NCBI GenBank assembly: GCA_946487895.1
Contig: CAMLUO010000001.1
Span: forward strand, 41,540-105,539
Direction of reading: 5' to 3'
Source: an uncultured Clostridium sp.
Lineage (GTDB): Bacteria > Bacillota > Clostridia > TANB77 > CAG-508
DNA length: 64,000 nucleotides
The notes under the pieces were generated by a model, which saw only the letters and a program-made list of their open reading frames with translations, made no database searches and was not told the origin of the DNA. The translations under genes and the position numbers were made by a program. This document shows, piece after piece, positions 1-5,734 of the stretch. The number at the start of each line of letters is the position of its first letter. The stretch's first letter is position 1.

Positions 1-61
1 TATAAGTCTCTTCTTTCAGATGCTAAATCTGTTCTAAAATTATACATACACTCATTCCTCC

Positions 62-128
62 TAAACAGGGATTCAAGGGACGGTCCTAAAAATCCCTGTT
101 TTTAGGGATTCGGGGACGGACCTTTAAA
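62..128. repeat. GGGGACGG-family repeat: one full 32-nt unit plus a partial direct copy
   Basis: The element reads cagggattcaagggacggtcctaaaaatccctg tttttagggattcggggacggacc. Confidence 0.65.
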
Positions 129-230
129 TCTAATTAATCAAAATTTTTATTTATTATTTACAAAAAGGTGAATTTTTATGTGTATTTTTTTAAATTTAAA
201 TAGTTTTCTTAGTTTTATTCACTATTTTAC

Positions 231-259
231 TTGAAAAATAATAAAATCCAATATATAAT
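231..259 (+). promoter_or_regulatory. Sigma-A-like promoter (TTGAAA, 17-nt spacer, TATAAT) upstream of the three-gene operon
   Basis: ttgaaa at 231-236, a 17-nt spacer, then tataat at 254-259. The first ORF follows with an aggagg RBS. Confidence 0.35.
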
Positions 260-290
260 TGACATAACTTAATATAAGGAGGTATATATT

Positions 291-608
291 ATGAAACTAT
301 CATTAATTAATGTATTTCAGAATGCTAGTTTTAAAAAATTAGACTGGCTGCCAGATTTGTTTTTTGGAATTGGATTTTTTGTTACTTTCTTGGCTATGTT
401 TTGGTTTCGGCCCAACTTAAACTGGCTTGCAATGTTAATGCTTCCCATATTGGTCGGCCTAGTAACAGAAGGATTATTTATGGTTATACATGGAATTTGC
501 ATCTGTTTAAAAAGCGATAACCATGAAATAAGATACCATAAATTTGATGAAGAAGATGACAAAAGTTATATATCTTCTAAATCTGATGAAAGATATAATA
601 AATTCTGA
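291..608 (+). CDS. Small membrane protein with two predicted TM helices and a charged C-terminal tail, hypothetical
   Basis: An AGGAGG RBS sits 7 nt upstream of the ATG. Two hydrophobic segments are present. It is first in the operon with the Ubl and rSAM-JAB genes. Confidence 0.4.
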   Translation: MKLSLINVFQNASFKKLDWLPDLFFGIGFFVTFLAMFWFRPNLNWLAMLMLPILVGLVTEGLFMVIHGICICLKSDNHEIRYHKFDEEDDKSYISSKSDERYNKF

Positions 609-698
609 AATTCCAAAAACAATTTGCAATAATATTGAAAGGAGGGTAGTTTTTTAGTAACAAGTAGACTCTTTTGTATTATGAAAGGATAAATTATT

Positions 699-1124
699 AT
701 GACAAAAAGAAAACTTATTAAAGTGTATGTAACTGTTGATCGGCAAAGAGCAACTCAAGTATCAATTCCAATGGATATCGATGAAGTTCAACTTAAAGCT
801 CAACTTAGAGACTTAGGGTATATTTCTTCTTATCGTAATTCCTATCTTACTACCAAAGTTTATCTTGATGATAATGGTAGTGGAAAGGAAATCTGTACTA
901 ATGAATATCGTTCATTACAAGAATTAGGAATTAAAGAAGGAAGTGGTATCATCATCGTGCCTGGAGAACCAGAGCCTAGACCTATATATAGAGATCTCTT
1001 TTCTATGAGATGCTTATATGGTTGTCCTATGGCACAAAGTGTTGAGGATGCAATCAATCAGGCTGAGAGTTATTCAGATGATGATAGTTCAGTAACAACT
1101 GGTTCTATTTCTGAACCTGATTAA
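699..1124 (+). CDS. Ubiquitin-like beta-grasp protein (YukD/EsaB-like) with an acidic, Cys-containing C-terminal extension
   Basis: Residues 5-95 alternate beta-grasp elements (KVYVTV ... VQLKAQLRDLGY ... LQELGIKEGSGIIIV). From memory this resembles the YukD/ubiquitin terminal pattern L-x-x-x-G-I-x-x-G-x-x-L-x-I. The tail ...FSMRCLYGCPMAQSVEDAINQAESYSDDDSS has two Cys. There is an RBS and no C-terminal GG. Confidence 0.5.
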   Translation: MTKRKLIKVYVTVDRQRATQVSIPMDIDEVQLKAQLRDLGYISSYRNSYLTTKVYLDDNGSGKEICTNEYRSLQELGIKEGSGIIIVPGEPEPRPIYRDLFSMRCLYGCPMAQSVEDAINQAESYSDDDSSVTTGSISEPD

Positions 1125-1140
1125 TTGAAAGGAGAACTTA

Positions 1141-2772
1141 ATGGAAAATTACTCAACTTGTAAATATCCATTGCATACTCTCTTTTTTGAAGTAACTAGC
1201 AGATGTAATGCACTTTGCGACCATTGCGGTAGTAGATGCAATGCTAGTAAAAAGGATGAATTGTCTCCTGAAACATTCAAAAAAGTACTTGATGATGTAG
1301 CTAAAAATTTTGGTACAAAAACTATTATGCTTAACATCACAGGTGGCGAACCTCTTATGAGAAAAGATTTGTTTGAAATTACTGGATATGCAGACAGTCT
1401 TGGCTTTAAATGGGGATTAGTAACTAATGGTATGTTAATAACAGATGATGTTATAAGAAAAATGAAAGAAACACACATGTCAACAATTACAATTAGTCTT
1501 GATGGAATGAAAAAGACTCATGAAGAATTTAGACATGTACCTGGTTCTTTTGATAAAATTATTTCTGCAATTGAAAAACTTAAAAAGAGTAATTTTATTG
1601 AACACATTCAGGTTACTTTCATAGCAACTAAAAATAACATTTATGAATTACCAGAGGTTTATCGCTTATTAAGTATGTTGGAAATTGACTCACTAAGAAT
1701 TAGTGGTGTTGATCCTATTGGTAGAGCCAAAGACAATGAAGATTTAATGCTAAATCAAGAAGATTATTTTTTCCTTTTTGACTTTATGAAAAAGCATTCT
1801 ACTTCCCCACTTCCTGTGGTCTGGAGTTGTACTCATTACTTTGGTAATACTGAAAGCAGTTTAGATCCTACTGGCAAGAAATTTGCCTGCTATACTGGAA
1901 TTCATATTGCATCAGTTCTTTCTAATGGCGATATTTTTGGATGTCCTAACATTCCAAGAAGAAAAGAATTGATACAAGGCAATGTTTTAAAAGATGATTT
2001 TTGTCAAGTTTGGAAAAACAATTTCGAATTCTACAGAAATCCTAATAGAACAAGAGCCAAACAGTGTGAAGATTGTGAATATTGGGATTATTGCAAAGGA
2101 GATAGTTTTCACACCTTTGATTTTGAAACTAATATTCCACAATTTTGTTACAAGGAAATTTTTTCAAGAAAAATTTATCCAGTCAATTCTGAAGATGTAA
2201 CCTATGATAGTATTATTGCATCACTAGTTCAAAAAAATGGAACAATGAAGCATTTAACTATTAGACCATCTAAATTTGAGCCACAGAAAACAGTAATATT
2301 TACACCACAAGCTACGAAGGATTTAATTAACATTTTTCATTATGGAGAATATCATCCTAGTAACTTGTATGAGCAACAGGCTGCACTAATTGGAAACAAT
2401 TTCAATGGCATTTCTTTGGTAAAATATGTCATACCAGCAATTTTATACAATAGAGCTGGAAATATGGCTACAATGGATGATTTCTGTTTAAGTCAAATTA
2501 TGGATGAGGTTTCAATTATAAATGAAAACATATCCAAATCTGACCATATTTATCAGGATTCATATGGAGATGTCAGTTTCCTTGGATTTGCACATAGTCA
2601 TCCAGGGAATACAGATTTTAGATTTAGTATCAATGATACTAAAAATCACAAAGACTTTGTGAAACGTTTTGGTGATTTTTTGTCTATTATCCTTAATCCT
2701 CAAAAGGAAAAAATTGTGTGCTTTTCAGGAACAGATTGTGTTCAGTCAAAATTAATATTGTTATCTAAATGA
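1141..2772 (+). CDS. Radical SAM / SPASM-domain enzyme fused to a C-terminal JAB/MPN+ (JAMM) metalloprotease-like domain
   Basis: The N-terminus carries CNALCDHC (CxxxCxxC) followed by GGEPL. A SPASM-type Cys cluster follows (CYTGIHIASVLSNGDIFGCP ... CEDCEYWDYCKGD). The C-terminal roughly 190 aa has E...HSHPGNTDFRFSIND, the same HSHPG as Rpn11-type JAMM but with one extra residue before S-x-x-D. Confidence 0.7.
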   Translation: MENYSTCKYPLHTLFFEVTSRCNALCDHCGSRCNASKKDELSPETFKKVLDDVAKNFGTKTIMLNITGGEPLMRKDLFEITGYADSLGFKWGLVTNGMLITDDVIRKMKETHMSTITISLDGMKKTHEEFRHVPGSFDKIISAIEKLKKSNFIEHIQVTFIATKNNIYELPEVYRLLSMLEIDSLRISGVDPIGRAKDNEDLMLNQEDYFFLFDFMKKHSTSPLPVVWSCTHYFGNTESSLDPTGKKFACYTGIHIASVLSNGDIFGCPNIPRRKELIQGNVLKDDFCQVWKNNFEFYRNPNRTRAKQCEDCEYWDYCKGDSFHTFDFETNIPQFCYKEIFSRKIYPVNSEDVTYDSIIASLVQKNGTMKHLTIRPSKFEPQKTVIFTPQATKDLINIFHYGEYHPSNLYEQQAALIGNNFNGISLVKYVIPAILYNRAGNMATMDDFCLSQIMDEVSIINENISKSDHIYQDSYGDVSFLGFAHSHPGNTDFRFSINDTKNHKDFVKRFGDFLSIILNPQKEKIVCFSGTDCVQSKLILLSK

Positions 2773-2775
2773 CTA

Positions 2776-2815
2776 CAAAATGCAGATAAGCTATAATTAT
2801 AGCTTGTCTGCATTC
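2776..2815. terminator. Bidirectional hairpin terminator between the rSAM-JAB gene and uvrA
   Basis: The sequence atgcagataagctataattatagcttgtctgcat is a perfect inverted repeat between convergent genes. Confidence 0.5.
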
Positions 2816-5734
2816 TATTTGTTTAGATATTTCTTTAAAAATTTTCCTGTATAACTTCTTTCATTATTACATATTTGCTCTGGTGTACCAACTGCAACCA
2901 CTTCTCCACCATTGTCTCCACCTTCTGGTCCTAAATCTATTATGTGGTCACATGTTTTGATTAAGTCTAAGTTGTGTTCAATTACAATTATTGTGTTTCC
3001 TGTATCTACTAATCTTTGCAAAATATCAACTAATTTATGAACATCTGCTATATGAAGTCCTGTTGTTGGTTCATCTAATATATATAATGTTTTTCCTGTT
3101 GCTTTTTTAGATAGTTCTGTTGCAAGTTTTACTCTTTGTGCTTCTCCACCTGATAATGTTGTTGATGGTTGTCCTAATTTAATATAACTTAGTCCTACAT
3201 CATATAATGTTTGAATTTTTTGTTTAATACGTGGCACTTTATCAAAAAATTCTAATGCTTCTTCTACTGTCATATCTAAAACATCTGCAATTGTTTTTCC
3301 TTTATATTTTACTTCTAATGTTTCTCTGTTATATCTTTTTCCTTTACATACTTCACATGGTACATAAATGTCCGGTAAAAAGTGCATTTCTATTTTATGA
3401 ACTCCGTCACCATTACAACTTTCACATCTTCCTCCTGCAACATTGAAACTAAATCTTCCTTTTTGATATCCTCTAACTTTTGCTTCTTCTGTTGCTGCAA
3501 AAAGGTCTCTTATAAAATCAAATACTCCTGTATATGTTGCTGGATTTGAACGTGGTGTTCTTCCTATTGGTGATTGGTCTATATTTATTATTTTATCAAT
3601 ATTATTTAATCCTTTAACTGCTTTACATTTTCCTGGTTTTTCATTTGAACCATTTAATTCTTTTGCAATTGTTTTATATAATACTTCATTTACAAGTGTT
3701 GATTTTCCTGAACCTGAAACTCCTGTTACGCAGTTAAATACTCCTAATGGAAATTTTACACTTATATTTTTCAAGTTGTTTTCTGTTGCACCTTGAACTT
3801 CAATAACTTTTGTTTTTGTATGTTTTCTTCTTTTTTTAGGTACTGGTATTTGTTTTCTACCACTTAAATATTGTCCTGTTACTGAATCCTCAACTTGTTT
3901 AACTTCTTCAGCTGTTCCGCTGTGCCATAACTTGTCCACCATGTGTTCCTGCACCTGGTCCAATATCAATTATTTGGTCTGCTGCATACATTGTGTCTTC
4001 ATCATGTTCTACAACAAGTAAAGTGTTTCCTAAGTCTCTTAACTTCTTTAATGTTGCTAATAACTTATCATTATCTCTTTGATGTAACCCTATACTTGGT
4101 TCATCTAAGATATATAATACTCCTGTCAAACCTGAACCAATTTGTGTAGCTAAACGGATTCTTTGAGCTTCTCCACCTGATAGTGTTCCTGCATTTCTTG
4201 ATAATGTTAAATATTCCAATCCAACATCCATTAAAAATTGCAATCTTTGGTCTATTTCTTTCAAAATCAGTTCTGAAATCATTGCTTCTGTTTTGTTTAG
4301 CTCTAAGTTATTTAAATATGCCTTTATTTTATCAATTGACATTTCTGTTAATTCATTTATATTTTTATCTCCTACTTTTATTGATAAAATTTCCGGTTTT
4401 AATCTTGCTCCATGACAATCATAACATTCTGAATTTGTCATATACATTTCATAAAAATCTCTCATTCCTTGAGATTTTGTCTCACTATGACGTCTATCTA
4501 ATGTTGGCAATACTCCTTCAAATGGTGCTGTAAATTTTCTTGTACCTGCATAAGATGAATATTCAAAGTCAATTTCTTCATCACCTGTACCATATAAAAT
4601 CTTTTCCATAAACCATCTAGGCAAATCTTTTATTTTTTTGCCTTTTATATCTATTCCATAATGTTTTCCTATTGCTTCAAAATACATTTTTGCCATTGTG
4701 TCGCCTTTTTTCATAGTGCTTGAACCAAATGCCTTTATACCATCATAAAGTGTTTTGTTTTTATCTGGCACAATTAAATCTTCATCCATTTTCATTAAAT
4801 ATCCTATTCCTGTACAAGTTGGACAAGCTCCAAATGGATTATTGAATGAAAACATTCTTGGTGTTAATTCTGGAAAACTAAATCCACAATCAGGACATGC
4901 ATAGTTACAACTATATAATTTGGGTTCTTTTCCTACAATATCTATTAAAACTAATTGATTTGCATGTTTTAAAGCTACTTCTACTGATTCTGTTAATCTA
5001 CTAACTATATCTGGTTTTATTACTAATCTATCAACTATAAGCTCTACATTATGCTTCTTTTTTCTATCTATTTCTATATCATCAGAAAGTTCATATACTT
5101 CTCCATCTATTCTAACTCTTACAAAACCTTCTTTTTGATATTCTTGTAACTGTTTAGTAAACTCTCCCTTTCTTCCTCTTACAACTGGTGCTAATACTTG
5201 AATTCTTGTTCCTTCTTCTAATGTCATTATATTATCAATTATCTGGTCAATTGATTGTTTTTCTATTTTTTTATGACAATTTGGACAATATGGTACTCCA
5301 ATTCTTGCATATAGAAGACGTATATAGTCATATATTTCTGTTACTGTTCCAACTGTTGAACGAGGATTTTTTGATGTAGTTTTTTGGTCAATTGAAATTG
5401 CAGGTGATAATCCATCTATTCTTTCAACATTTGGTTTTTCCATTAATCCTAAGAATTGTCTTGCATATGATGATAGGCTTTCTACATATCTTCTTTGTCC
5501 TTCTGCATATAATGTGTCAAATGCCAAACTAGATTTTCCAGAACCTGAAAGTCCTGTAATTACTACTAATTTGTCTCTTGCTATTTCTAAATCTATATTT
5601 TTTAAATTATGTTCTTTTGCACCTTTTATCACTATTTTATCATTCATTGAATCCTCCTTATTCTGCATCCATAAAATAAAAGCAGCTATAAAAATAACTG
5701 CAATTATTATACTACATAAATTCAAATAAAACAA
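2815..5734 (-). pseudogene. uvrA: Excinuclease ABC subunit A (UvrA), split into 608-aa and 384-aa ORFs by a 1-nt insertion
   Basis: The N-terminal ORF reads GLSGSGKSSLAFDTLYAEGQRRY... and the C-terminal ORF reads ...[10 protein letters not shown].... The two ORFs overlap at 3908-3969. The sense sequence is gca cag C gga aca gct. Removing C (plus-strand g at about 3919) gives ...GGQVMAQ|GTAEEV, a typical UvrA junction. Confidence 0.85.

Follow-up and report, generated by a model that had tools for sequence, protein, structure and literature searches.

A radical SAM/SPASM enzyme fused to a JAMM domain and its linked Tyr-Gly-(Cys/Ala)-Pro-tagged partner proteins in gut and rumen Clostridia

Peptide maturation by radical S-adenosylmethionine (SAM) enzymes and the processing of ubiquitin-type proteins by JAB peptidases have so far been studied apart. 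Here we describe a locus that joins the two. It is located at positions 231 to 2815 of a 64,000-nucleotide stretch of a contig of an uncultured Clostridium sp. (CAMLUO010000001.1; the whole stretch is hereafter called the window), where the gene of a 141-amino-acid (aa) ubiquitin-like protein (Ubl) lies next to the gene of a 543-aa radical SAM enzyme that ends in a JAMM/MPN+ (JAB) domain.

Radical SAM/SPASM spliceases excise tyramine at xYG motifs, LYG and MYG among them (PMC11414181, PMC11626197). The spliceotide systems (PlpX, RhaX, and RasX), which yield RiPPs (peptides made by the ribosome and modified after translation), resemble the locus in having a radical SAM/SPASM enzyme and an invariant x-Tyr-Gly in the substrate, and proteins as well as peptides are possible substrates. 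However, no fused protease is described in PMC11414181 or PMC11626197, and the motif of the window extends to Y-G-x-P. In maturation of the mycofactocin (MftA/MftC/MftE), PQQ, and bottromycin type, the Tyr-containing C-terminal region of a ribosomal precursor is modified by a SPASM radical SAM enzyme before a dedicated metallopeptidase trims it. In the bottromycin pathway, a Zn hydrolase removes a C-terminal follower peptide (PMC10885120). JAB, JAMM, and MPN are all absent from a 2023 review of RiPP proteases. The trimming enzymes of these pathways belong to other classes, the creatininase-like MftE and the amidohydrolase BotAH versus a JAMM domain here; moreover, the pathway enzymes are separate polypeptides and depend on a RiPP recognition element (RRE).

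Among the ubiquitin-type systems, the JABs that serve ThiS/MoaD-type sulfur-carrier Ubls (QbsE/QbsD and CysO/Mec+) cleave a Gly|Cys bond at the Ubl C-terminus, as is proposed below for the window protein. These systems have no known radical SAM partner and, unlike the window pair, need an E1-like adenylating enzyme and end in GG. In addition, the bacterial JAB BilC has been shown experimentally to pre-process its Ubl, BilA, exposing a C-terminal reactive Gly (bioRxiv 10.1101/2023.09.26.559546). Operons of the Ubl-E1-E2-JAB type resemble the locus in that a ubiquitin-fold protein with an extension after a Gly is encoded next to a JAMM peptidase. The window differs from them in the lack of E1 and E2, in the fusion of its JAB to a radical SAM/SPASM enzyme, in the invariant Tyr, rather than Gly, that precedes the Gly, in its extension of 33 aa, which is conserved, and in the occurrence of the tag on non-Ubl cargo as well. 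The literature searched, whose coverage was incomplete so that an earlier mention is possible, contained no description of a radical SAM-JAB fusion, a YGCP tag, or TIGR04133, and NCBIfam, Pfam, and PADLOC hold no model for the tagged substrate or for the fusion. The fusion-enzyme family is apparently undescribed.

The fusion enzyme and its tagged partners

The locus contains three open reading frames (ORFs), all on the + strand, at 291-608 (105 aa), 699-1124 (141 aa), and 1141-2772 (543 aa). The features of the latter two are given below.

699-968, + strand: ubiquitin-like beta-grasp domain of the 141-aa protein (aa 1-90), the proposed cargo
969-1016, + strand: flexible linker (aa 91-106) including the non-conserved Cys105, from the alignment and a drop in the predicted local distance difference test (pLDDT) score
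1017-1028, + strand: invariant Y107-G108-C109-P110 motif, the proposed site of action of the radical SAM domain (Tyr/Gly) and of the JAB domain (Gly108|Cys109)
1029-1124, + strand: conserved acidic tail MAxSVEEAINQAExYSxxDSxVTTGxI and stop codon, the proposed tag, from the alignment and an AlphaFold2 (AF2) model
1141-2160, + strand: radical SAM core and SPASM domain of the 543-aa enzyme (aa 1-340), from matches to PF04055, PF13186, and TIGR04133
2161-2772, + strand: JAMM/MPN+ (JAB) domain and stop codon, from profile search, AF2 fold, and catalytic residues
2371-2373 and 2593-2637, + strand: JAMM catalytic residues E411 and H485-S-H487...S496-x-x-D499, respectively, from the alignment

The enzyme's N-terminal part carries the motif CNALCDHC (CxxxCxxC) at aa 22-29 (nucleotides 1204-1227), which is kept in every listed homologue reaching the N-terminus, and it belongs to Radical_SAM (PF04055; E 1e-21, 78.3 bits versus a cutoff of 29.5). 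Membership in SPASM (PF13186) is narrow, with 22.7 bits versus a cutoff of 21.5 at aa 250-313; the region of aa 230-337 contains seven to eight Cys, including CxxCx5C. The radical SAM motif starts at aa 22, and Pfam and NCBIfam scans detected no N-terminal PqqD/RRE domain in the enzyme. The closest solved structure to this part is the thioether synthase CteB (1.5e-17), a likeness that is generic for SPASM enzymes. A PADLOC scan gave no system-level match; it returned a generic radical SAM likeness to pVip (83.8 bits, radical SAM core) and a weak JAB match with an E of 0.009. A stretch of the SPASM region, D-I-F-G-C-P-N (window 1933-1950, aa 265-270), resembles the substrate tag Y-Y-G-C-P-N, which is probably a coincidence of the SPASM Gx4C motif.

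The match of the C-terminal part to Prok-JAB (PF14464) was weak (aa 472-507, E 0.05, 13.9 bits versus a gathering score of 25), and remote relatives of the same JAB subfamily passed PF01398 with 23.0-28.9 bits versus 22.5. A profile from an alignment of the C-terminal 204 aa of 30 homologues (A2) gave 18 matches against the PDB sequences, all of them JAMM/MPN proteins, the best being AMSH-LP (3.5e-5), aligned over HxH...SxxD. The AF2 model of the domain had a pLDDT of 91.4, and its top Foldseek matches in the PDB were all MPN/JAMM proteins (Rpn11 homologues, CSN5/6, BRCC36, AMSH, and PfJAMM1; E down to 8.7e-10). E411, H485, H487, S496, and D499 are invariant in the 30 sequences of A2, HSHP-x8-S-x-x-D is kept in every listed homologue reaching the C-terminus, and the catalytic Glu, both His, Ser, and Asp remain invariant down to ~27% identity. 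The first-pass annotation, a model's reading of this DNA, had described the enzyme as a fusion of radical SAM, SPASM, and JAMM modules, and the Pfam matches, the profile search, the AF2 fold, and the invariant residues bear this out. The C-terminal domain is confirmed as JAMM/MPN+, and to judge from its residues, the site looks catalytically competent.

For the 141-aa protein, AF2 predicted a beta-grasp fold over aa 1-90 (pLDDT ~80-88), followed by a disordered tail with one predicted helix (aa 113-122). The earlier reading as a ubiquitin-like beta-grasp protein thus stands, but its assignment to YukD (PF08817) was dropped, there being zero Pfam matches at E<=1; the fold is generic ubiquitin-like. 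The sequence CLYGC, noted earlier in the tail, occupies aa 105-109, and as had been stated, the protein has no GG terminus. The conserved motif is Y-G-C-P, however, and the first Cys varies: position 105 is C, Y, A, F, or V among the homologues, whereas Y107, G108, C109, and P110 are invariant in the Ubl family. The consensus of the Ubl-family tail is LYGCPMAxSVEEAINQAExYSxxDSxVTTGxI, and the linker of aa 91-106 varies in length and sequence. The YGCP of this protein is the only YGxP in the 64 kb of the window in any reading frame of at least 60 codons. The protein does not have the features of a conjugated Ubl, since besides the missing GG, the YG lies ~18 residues past the last strand and no E1 or E2 is encoded nearby.

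The fusion enzyme has many homologues, with identity down to ~43%. A genome scan, in which each species was represented by one genome, yielded 54 loci, all from metagenome-assembled genomes (MAGs) of gut or rumen Clostridia. In 52 of them, a same-strand ORF with YG[CA]P, in 1-6 copies, lies directly beside the fusion gene (upstream alone in 25 loci, downstream alone in another 25, and on either side in the remaining 2); one of the two other loci is a contig that starts inside the enzyme gene. Across all ORFs of the loci, ~4.2 occurrences of YG[CA]P are expected from composition versus ~95 observed, nearly all of them enzyme-adjacent, and chance adjacency was rejected on these co-occurrence statistics. 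The Ubl-type gene adjoins the enzyme gene in every complete Ubl-type locus, which upholds the functional linkage that had been suggested for the two genes, and the neighbourhood comparison proposed at the same time gave the adjacency just described. All-against-all clustering of the ORFs revealed no other conserved neighbour of at least 90 aa, only the enzyme, its shadow ORFs, and the Ubl-type precursor. The 105-aa ORF is likewise without a counterpart in the other loci. The conserved unit therefore comprises two genes, one for the enzyme and the other, in one or more copies, for a tagged substrate.

The motif was counted in 89 unique precursors, with positions numbered relative to Gly = 0.

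Position -2: Y 58, L 25, H 5, F 1 (n=89)
Position -1: Y 89/89
Position 0: G 89/89
Position +1: C 86/89, A 3/89
Position +2: P 89/89

All 89 precursors therefore contain [Y/L/H/F]-Y-G, which agrees with the xYG definition of the spliceotide motif (PMC11414181). In locus L051, both precursors have Ala instead of Cys+1, as does one of the two in L043, and 43 of the 89 precursors have Cys-3. The tail after the Gly is 13-36 aa long (median, 18).

The Ubl is one of several interchangeable cargoes of this tail. Ubl domains serve as cargo in the window's clade, in L060, and in L064, and such Ubl cargoes occur in at least three enzyme clades; the other cargo types are Zn-ribbon-Ubls, small lipoproteins, and amphipathic peptides. 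By hhalign, the Zn-ribbon-Ubl proteins are homologues of the window Ubl (probability 90%, E 1.4e-6). At least 12 small precursors have lipoprotein signal peptides with canonical lipoboxes; some peptide precursors have an amphipathic N-terminal helix and are encoded by as many as six genes in tandem. What is conserved among the small precursors is the tail (cYYGCPNSKKAxKLQLxRKlyr), their N-terminus being hypervariable. In metagenomic loci of distant homologues, the neighbours are not Ubl homologues, yet all bear the YG(C/A)P motif. Motif-bearing neighbours include, in L001, four tandem peptides of 64-76 aa together with two Zn-ribbon proteins; in L003, a lipoprotein-like peptide of 62 aa; and in L005, a peptide of 57 aa and a Zn-ribbon protein of 178 aa. 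No full-length fusion enzyme was found in phage and plasmid collections, which gave no evidence of carriage by mobile elements.

Some loci have further peculiarities. In L005 (2813-4271), the precursors are preceded by an extra 247-aa radical SAM protein (Fer4_12, Radical_SAM, activase-like) and a 243-aa protein, an arrangement with an extra small radical SAM protein that was not seen in other loci. The fusion enzyme of L051 (4588-6600; P0247, 670 aa) contains two inserts missing from the 543-aa window enzyme, one near the N-terminus and the other, further in, made of low-complexity RDAQI(S/A)QI(D/E) repeats; both precursors of this P0247 locus read YYGAP, not YYGCP. In L016 (3912-4256) and L018 (7835-8173), Ubl paralogues of 112-114 aa that lack the tail and its YGCP, and that share ~33-35% identity with the window Ubl, are encoded near the pair of Ubl-YGCP and enzyme genes.

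Relatives of the two halves of the enzyme

The best match of the enzyme among 80 NCBIfam families was TIGR04133 (rSAM_w_lipo), with 273.8 bits over aa 7-337. This is below the cutoff of 425, and the window enzyme is therefore a sister clade and not a member. TIGR04133 and TIGR04134 are hypothetical equivalogs of NCBIfam and are uncharacterised. The annotated TIGR04133 proteins, which with their TIGR04134 partners came from plasmid-collection matches, are ~360 aa long and without a JAB and share ~35% identity with the window enzyme; their genes adjoin TIGR04134 'radical SAM-associated putative lipoprotein' genes in Bacteroidales and Treponema (loci L065-L148). In 72 of 78 TIGR04133 loci, the adjacent lipoprotein bears (E/M)-Y-G-x-P a few residues after the lipobox Cys, with x being T/S/C/A/M/V. 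We have not seen YGxP in TIGR04134 lipoproteins stated elsewhere, and it defines a testable target for the TIGR04133/TIGR04134 pair. The motif of these lipoproteins is followed by ...Y-x-[IV]-K-G-K-V. The pair resembles the window locus in being a two-gene module whose partner has Y-G-x-P, and some partners in the window's family are also lipoproteins. On the other hand, it lacks a JAB, and the lipoprotein carries its motif close to the N-terminus, after the lipobox and ahead of a beta-rich domain, not before a disposable C-terminal tail; the window partner and five related precursors gave no TIGR04134 match. YGxP thus travels with this radical SAM clade with or without a JAB, and with x free, which points to Tyr/Gly, not Cys, as the reaction site. 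The enzyme scored 105.7 bits versus a cutoff of 725 with TIGR04103 (nif11-class maturase 3), which we take to be the splicease-type (PlpX-type) family, and AhbD, NirJ, and MftC scored as well or better.

A search of 1.84 billion representative proteins with the JAB profile gave 245 relatives at E<=1e-3 and 55 at E<=1e-10, including fusion proteins and standalone JABs of ~400-460 aa. The standalone JAB family P0262 is found in operons of the order Ubl (93-94 aa), ThiF/E1, UQ_con/E2, and JAB, which also hold transglutaminase-like, kinase, and AAA+ genes; their Ubls end in ...VTG-VAA or ...PDG-MWDA, that is, in Gly followed by a short extension. The closest standalone relatives of the window JAB include that of L064 (37% identity over 163 aa, E 8e-28). 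L064 also encodes a 123-aa Ubl ending ...EEDVCGLYGCPTSREIEG... and a 540-aa radical SAM-SPASM-JAB enzyme, and this tailed-Ubl pair lies directly upstream of a paralogous Ubl that is 85% identical but lacks the tail, together with its E1, E2, and JAB. The expectation that classical Ubl/JAB systems pair with an E1 was thus met by the nearest standalone JABs, and L064 holds both systems. E1 and E2 were present only in this related locus; they were not found in the window or in the flanks (up to ~6 kb per side) of the 54 genome loci. In L060 (6726-10501), the Ubl-YGCP and radical SAM-JAB genes are followed by transglutaminase-like, protein kinase, and vWA genes, and a transglutaminase and a kinase also flank the E1-E2-JAB cassette in L062-L064.

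The operons of L062, L063, and L064 (277-13260) are conflict-system-like. Besides two transglutaminase-like genes, they hold genes for a Ubl, an E1 of the ThiF type, one or two UQ_con-like E2s, and a JAB of 419-422 aa whose C-terminal extension is long; a Ser/Thr kinase, a small Fer4_12/radical-SAM protein, and a ClpB-like AAA+ protein are also encoded. The vWA protein of L060 bears a long ADPFGGSAPAGE repeat, and in L061 (46-4391), Ser/Thr kinases lie directly upstream.

Proposed maturation pathway and competing explanations

With moderate confidence, we propose that the locus is a two-gene maturation module whose bifunctional enzyme acts on a C-terminal tag of the adjacent gene product. Domain identities, the conservation of catalytic residues and motifs, gene linkage, and family relationships are shown here; where the enzyme cuts, in which order the steps run, what the chemistry is, and which of the fragments is the product are inferred. 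The enzyme would recognize the tag [aromatic/Leu]-Tyr-Gly-(Cys/Ala)-Pro plus the helical tail of 13-36 residues; since there is no RRE and a helix is predicted in the tail, the tail may itself be the recognition tag. The radical SAM/SPASM domain would first perform radical chemistry on the Tyr-Gly, for which splicease-like excision of tyramine at xYG and a Tyr-centred crosslink are candidates; a three-residue cyclophane over Y-G-x and scission of the Tyr side chain are equally open. The variation of x in the YGxP of the sister family argues against the x residue as the reaction site. The fused JAMM domain would then hydrolyse Gly|Cys, just as related JABs remove what follows the reactive Gly of Ubl precursors, and by this homology Gly108|Cys109 is the most likely scissile bond. 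Finally, the tail would be discarded and the N-terminal cargo freed with a new, modified C-terminus; in the window, this would be a cytoplasmic ubiquitin-fold protein ending ...M-R-C-L-Y*-G. That the tail is a removable tag and the N-terminal part the product is suggested by the small precursors, whose tails stay constant while their N-termini are hypervariable. The enzyme lacks a signal peptide and, like other Fe-S enzymes of its kind, is presumably cytoplasmic; by cutting before export, it would part the tail from an exported, signal-peptide-bearing cargo. The kinds of processing involved, radical SAM-dependent maturation and JAB processing of Ubl-type C-termini, are known; there is a real chance that the chemistry is new.

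Several points weigh against this proposal. Canonical JAMM deubiquitinases take Gly-Gly at P2-P1, and here P2 is Tyr, which would call for a differing pocket, prior remodelling of the Tyr, or a cut elsewhere. The spacer from HxH to Ser has 8 residues versus the usual 7. Within the window's clade, the tail matches the Ubl in conservation and might therefore be a product in its own right, and the 97% conservation of Cys+1 in the fusion-enzyme family needs explaining. By its profile scores, the enzyme is not specifically related to the spliceases. Comparison of net charges gave no clear pointer to the domain that binds the tail: the correlation (rho) with tail charge was a weak -0.37 for the radical SAM/SPASM part and +0.52 for the JAB part and is confounded by phylogeny.

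Prior remodelling of the Tyr would, as a speculation, resolve the P2 difficulty. In such a scheme, the radical SAM domain might turn x-Tyr-Gly into a ketoamide-Gly or a Gly-Gly-like junction, by tyramine excision or by cleavage of the Tyr C-alpha to C-beta bond, and only then would the JAB cut. A chemically special, possibly reactive C-terminus would thereby be made without ATP or E1 on proteins including a true ubiquitin-fold protein, and in L060-type loci the pair would functionally replace the Ubl-E1-E2-JAB cassette, which occurs in a like setting of transglutaminase and kinase genes. We give this scheme only an outside chance.

The first-pass annotation had taken the ubiquitin fold as the leader or carrier of a peptide tail. 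In that case, the SPASM enzyme would form a Cys thioether or another crosslink in the tail as core peptide, and the JAB would free the Cys-Pro-starting tail as the product. This is rather unlikely, although Cys+1 and Cys-3 (86 and 43 of the 89 precursors, respectively), the thioether-forming CteB as closest solved structure to the radical SAM part, the strong conservation of the tail to its end in the window's clade, and a second conserved Cys in the tails of L060 and L061 speak for it. Cys chemistry is not favoured because C105 of the window protein is variable, Cys+1 can be Ala (both precursors of L051 and one of L043), and partners of the sister radical SAM family have T/S/C/A/M/V at the matching position; the essential donor Cys and the RRE of sactipeptide and ranthipeptide maturases are thus not found, Cys+1 being replaceable and no PqqD/RRE domain being present. 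N-terminal lipoprotein signals would be useless for exporting a tail cut off in the cytoplasm, and conservation is inverted relative to a leader and core, with a constant tail and a hypervariable N-terminus. Since the same tail occurs on lipoproteins, amphipathic peptides, and Zn-ribbon-Ubls, the Ubl is probably not a dedicated leader. What persists of the earlier proposal is its general idea: that the tail would be modified and proteolytically processed is the best general model. Formylglycine formation of the anSME type was set aside: the formylglycine motif is C/S-x-P/A-x-R, which the tag C-P-x-S/A-K misfits, and the Cys is replaceable.

It is also conceivable that the enzyme matures or activates the Ubl independently of E1 and that the reactive or specially modified C-terminus left by Tyr-Gly radical chemistry and JAB cleavage is joined to targets, perhaps through transglutaminase-like partners at some loci, the whole being part of a conflict or defence system. 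The kinship of the JAB with those of Ubl-E1-E2-JAB operons, the juxtaposition of both systems in L064, the transglutaminase-like, kinase, and vWA genes after the pair in L060 (the first two of which also flank the L062-L064 cassette), and the recurrence of Ubl cargoes in at least three enzyme clades fit such a role. However, the cargo of most family members is not a Ubl but a lipopeptide or an amphipathic peptide, and no E1, E2, or transglutaminase is within reach in the window and the other loci. Furthermore, at least 18 variable residues separate the Ubl fold from the YG, unlike the tight ubiquitin tail read by conjugation enzymes, PADLOC gave no system-level match, and no member was found on phages or plasmids. 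We therefore see a slim chance for it. Least probable, and in our view very unlikely, is that the JAB is a catalytically silent docking module that replaces the RRE while unlinked host proteases perform the proteolysis. The absence of a PqqD-like RRE, the non-canonical 8-residue HxH-Ser spacer, and the Pfam JAB score below threshold would suit a silent domain, but pseudo-MPN domains typically lose the JAMM catalytic residues, and here the Glu, both His, Ser, and Asp are retained without exception down to ~27% identity. In addition, TIGR04133 works on YGxP partners without a JAB, so docking needs no JAB.

If the proposed two-gene maturation module is real, x-Y-G-(C/A)-P and a helix would together form a short, portable tag directing both radical modification and precise C-terminal cleavage of arbitrary cargo, which would be of interest to protein engineers and natural-product chemists. 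The large TIGR04133/TIGR04134 pair of gut Bacteroidales would gain the target motif YGxP, making its chemistry directly testable, and JAMM peptidases would join the proteases of RiPP and protein maturation. L064 and L060 suggest how bacterial Ubl systems swap activation and processing modules. The producers are Clostridia from gut and rumen, with many of the cargoes, encoded in hypervariable multi-copy arrays, being amphipathic peptides or surface lipopeptides; the products may therefore matter in microbe-microbe or microbe-host interactions.

Layout of the unit and neighbouring DNA

The remaining features of the unit and its surroundings are as follows.

63-105, + strand: upstream terminator-like hairpin of two perfect 11-bp arms (63-73 / 91-101) with a T-run after it
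231-259, + strand: sigma-70-like promoter candidate TTGAAA-17-TATAAT (11/12 matches; weak evidence)
276-282, 683-689, and 1127-1134, + strand: Shine-Dalgarno-like sequences, one per ORF
291-608, + strand: co-oriented 105-aa ORF with two hydrophobic segments, without a family match and without a tblastn match in related loci
2779-2814, + strand: strong intrinsic-terminator-like hairpin of 16 bp followed by a T-run at the 3' end of the unit, from the sequence

The earlier description of an operon holds for the three co-oriented ORFs and the promoter-like and terminator-like signals, but not for a conserved three-gene unit, which comprises two genes only. The 105-aa two-transmembrane ORF, for which tblastn over all related loci gave no counterpart, may be an unrelated small membrane protein or no gene at all. 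The promoter call is weak because such sites are not enriched over shuffles of this AT-rich DNA (28% G+C), 33 being found versus 26.9 expected from shuffled sequence. The hairpin at 63-105 probably insulates the unit against upstream transcription. An 18-nt direct repeat, GGGACGG(T/A)CCT..AAATC, lies at 77-94 and 113-130 by this hairpin, and a longer motif near 63-130, AGGGATTCRRGGGACGGWCCT, occurs once in the window (<=2 mismatches). An Rfam scan of positions 1-3000 of the window gave no riboswitch or other RNA family above threshold; a single match below it, over the terminator, was discounted.

Downstream, on the opposite strand, lie a frameshifted uvrA and a formate-tetrahydrofolate ligase gene, and the setting is therefore chromosomal. 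The uvrA (2815-5734, minus strand) consists of two overlapping ORFs, 2815-3969 and 3908-5734, with the frameshift near 3908-3969. The same two-frame structure is found in the 98%-identical MAG contig L008, and the split is either a real frameshift or pseudogene or an assembly error common to both contigs.

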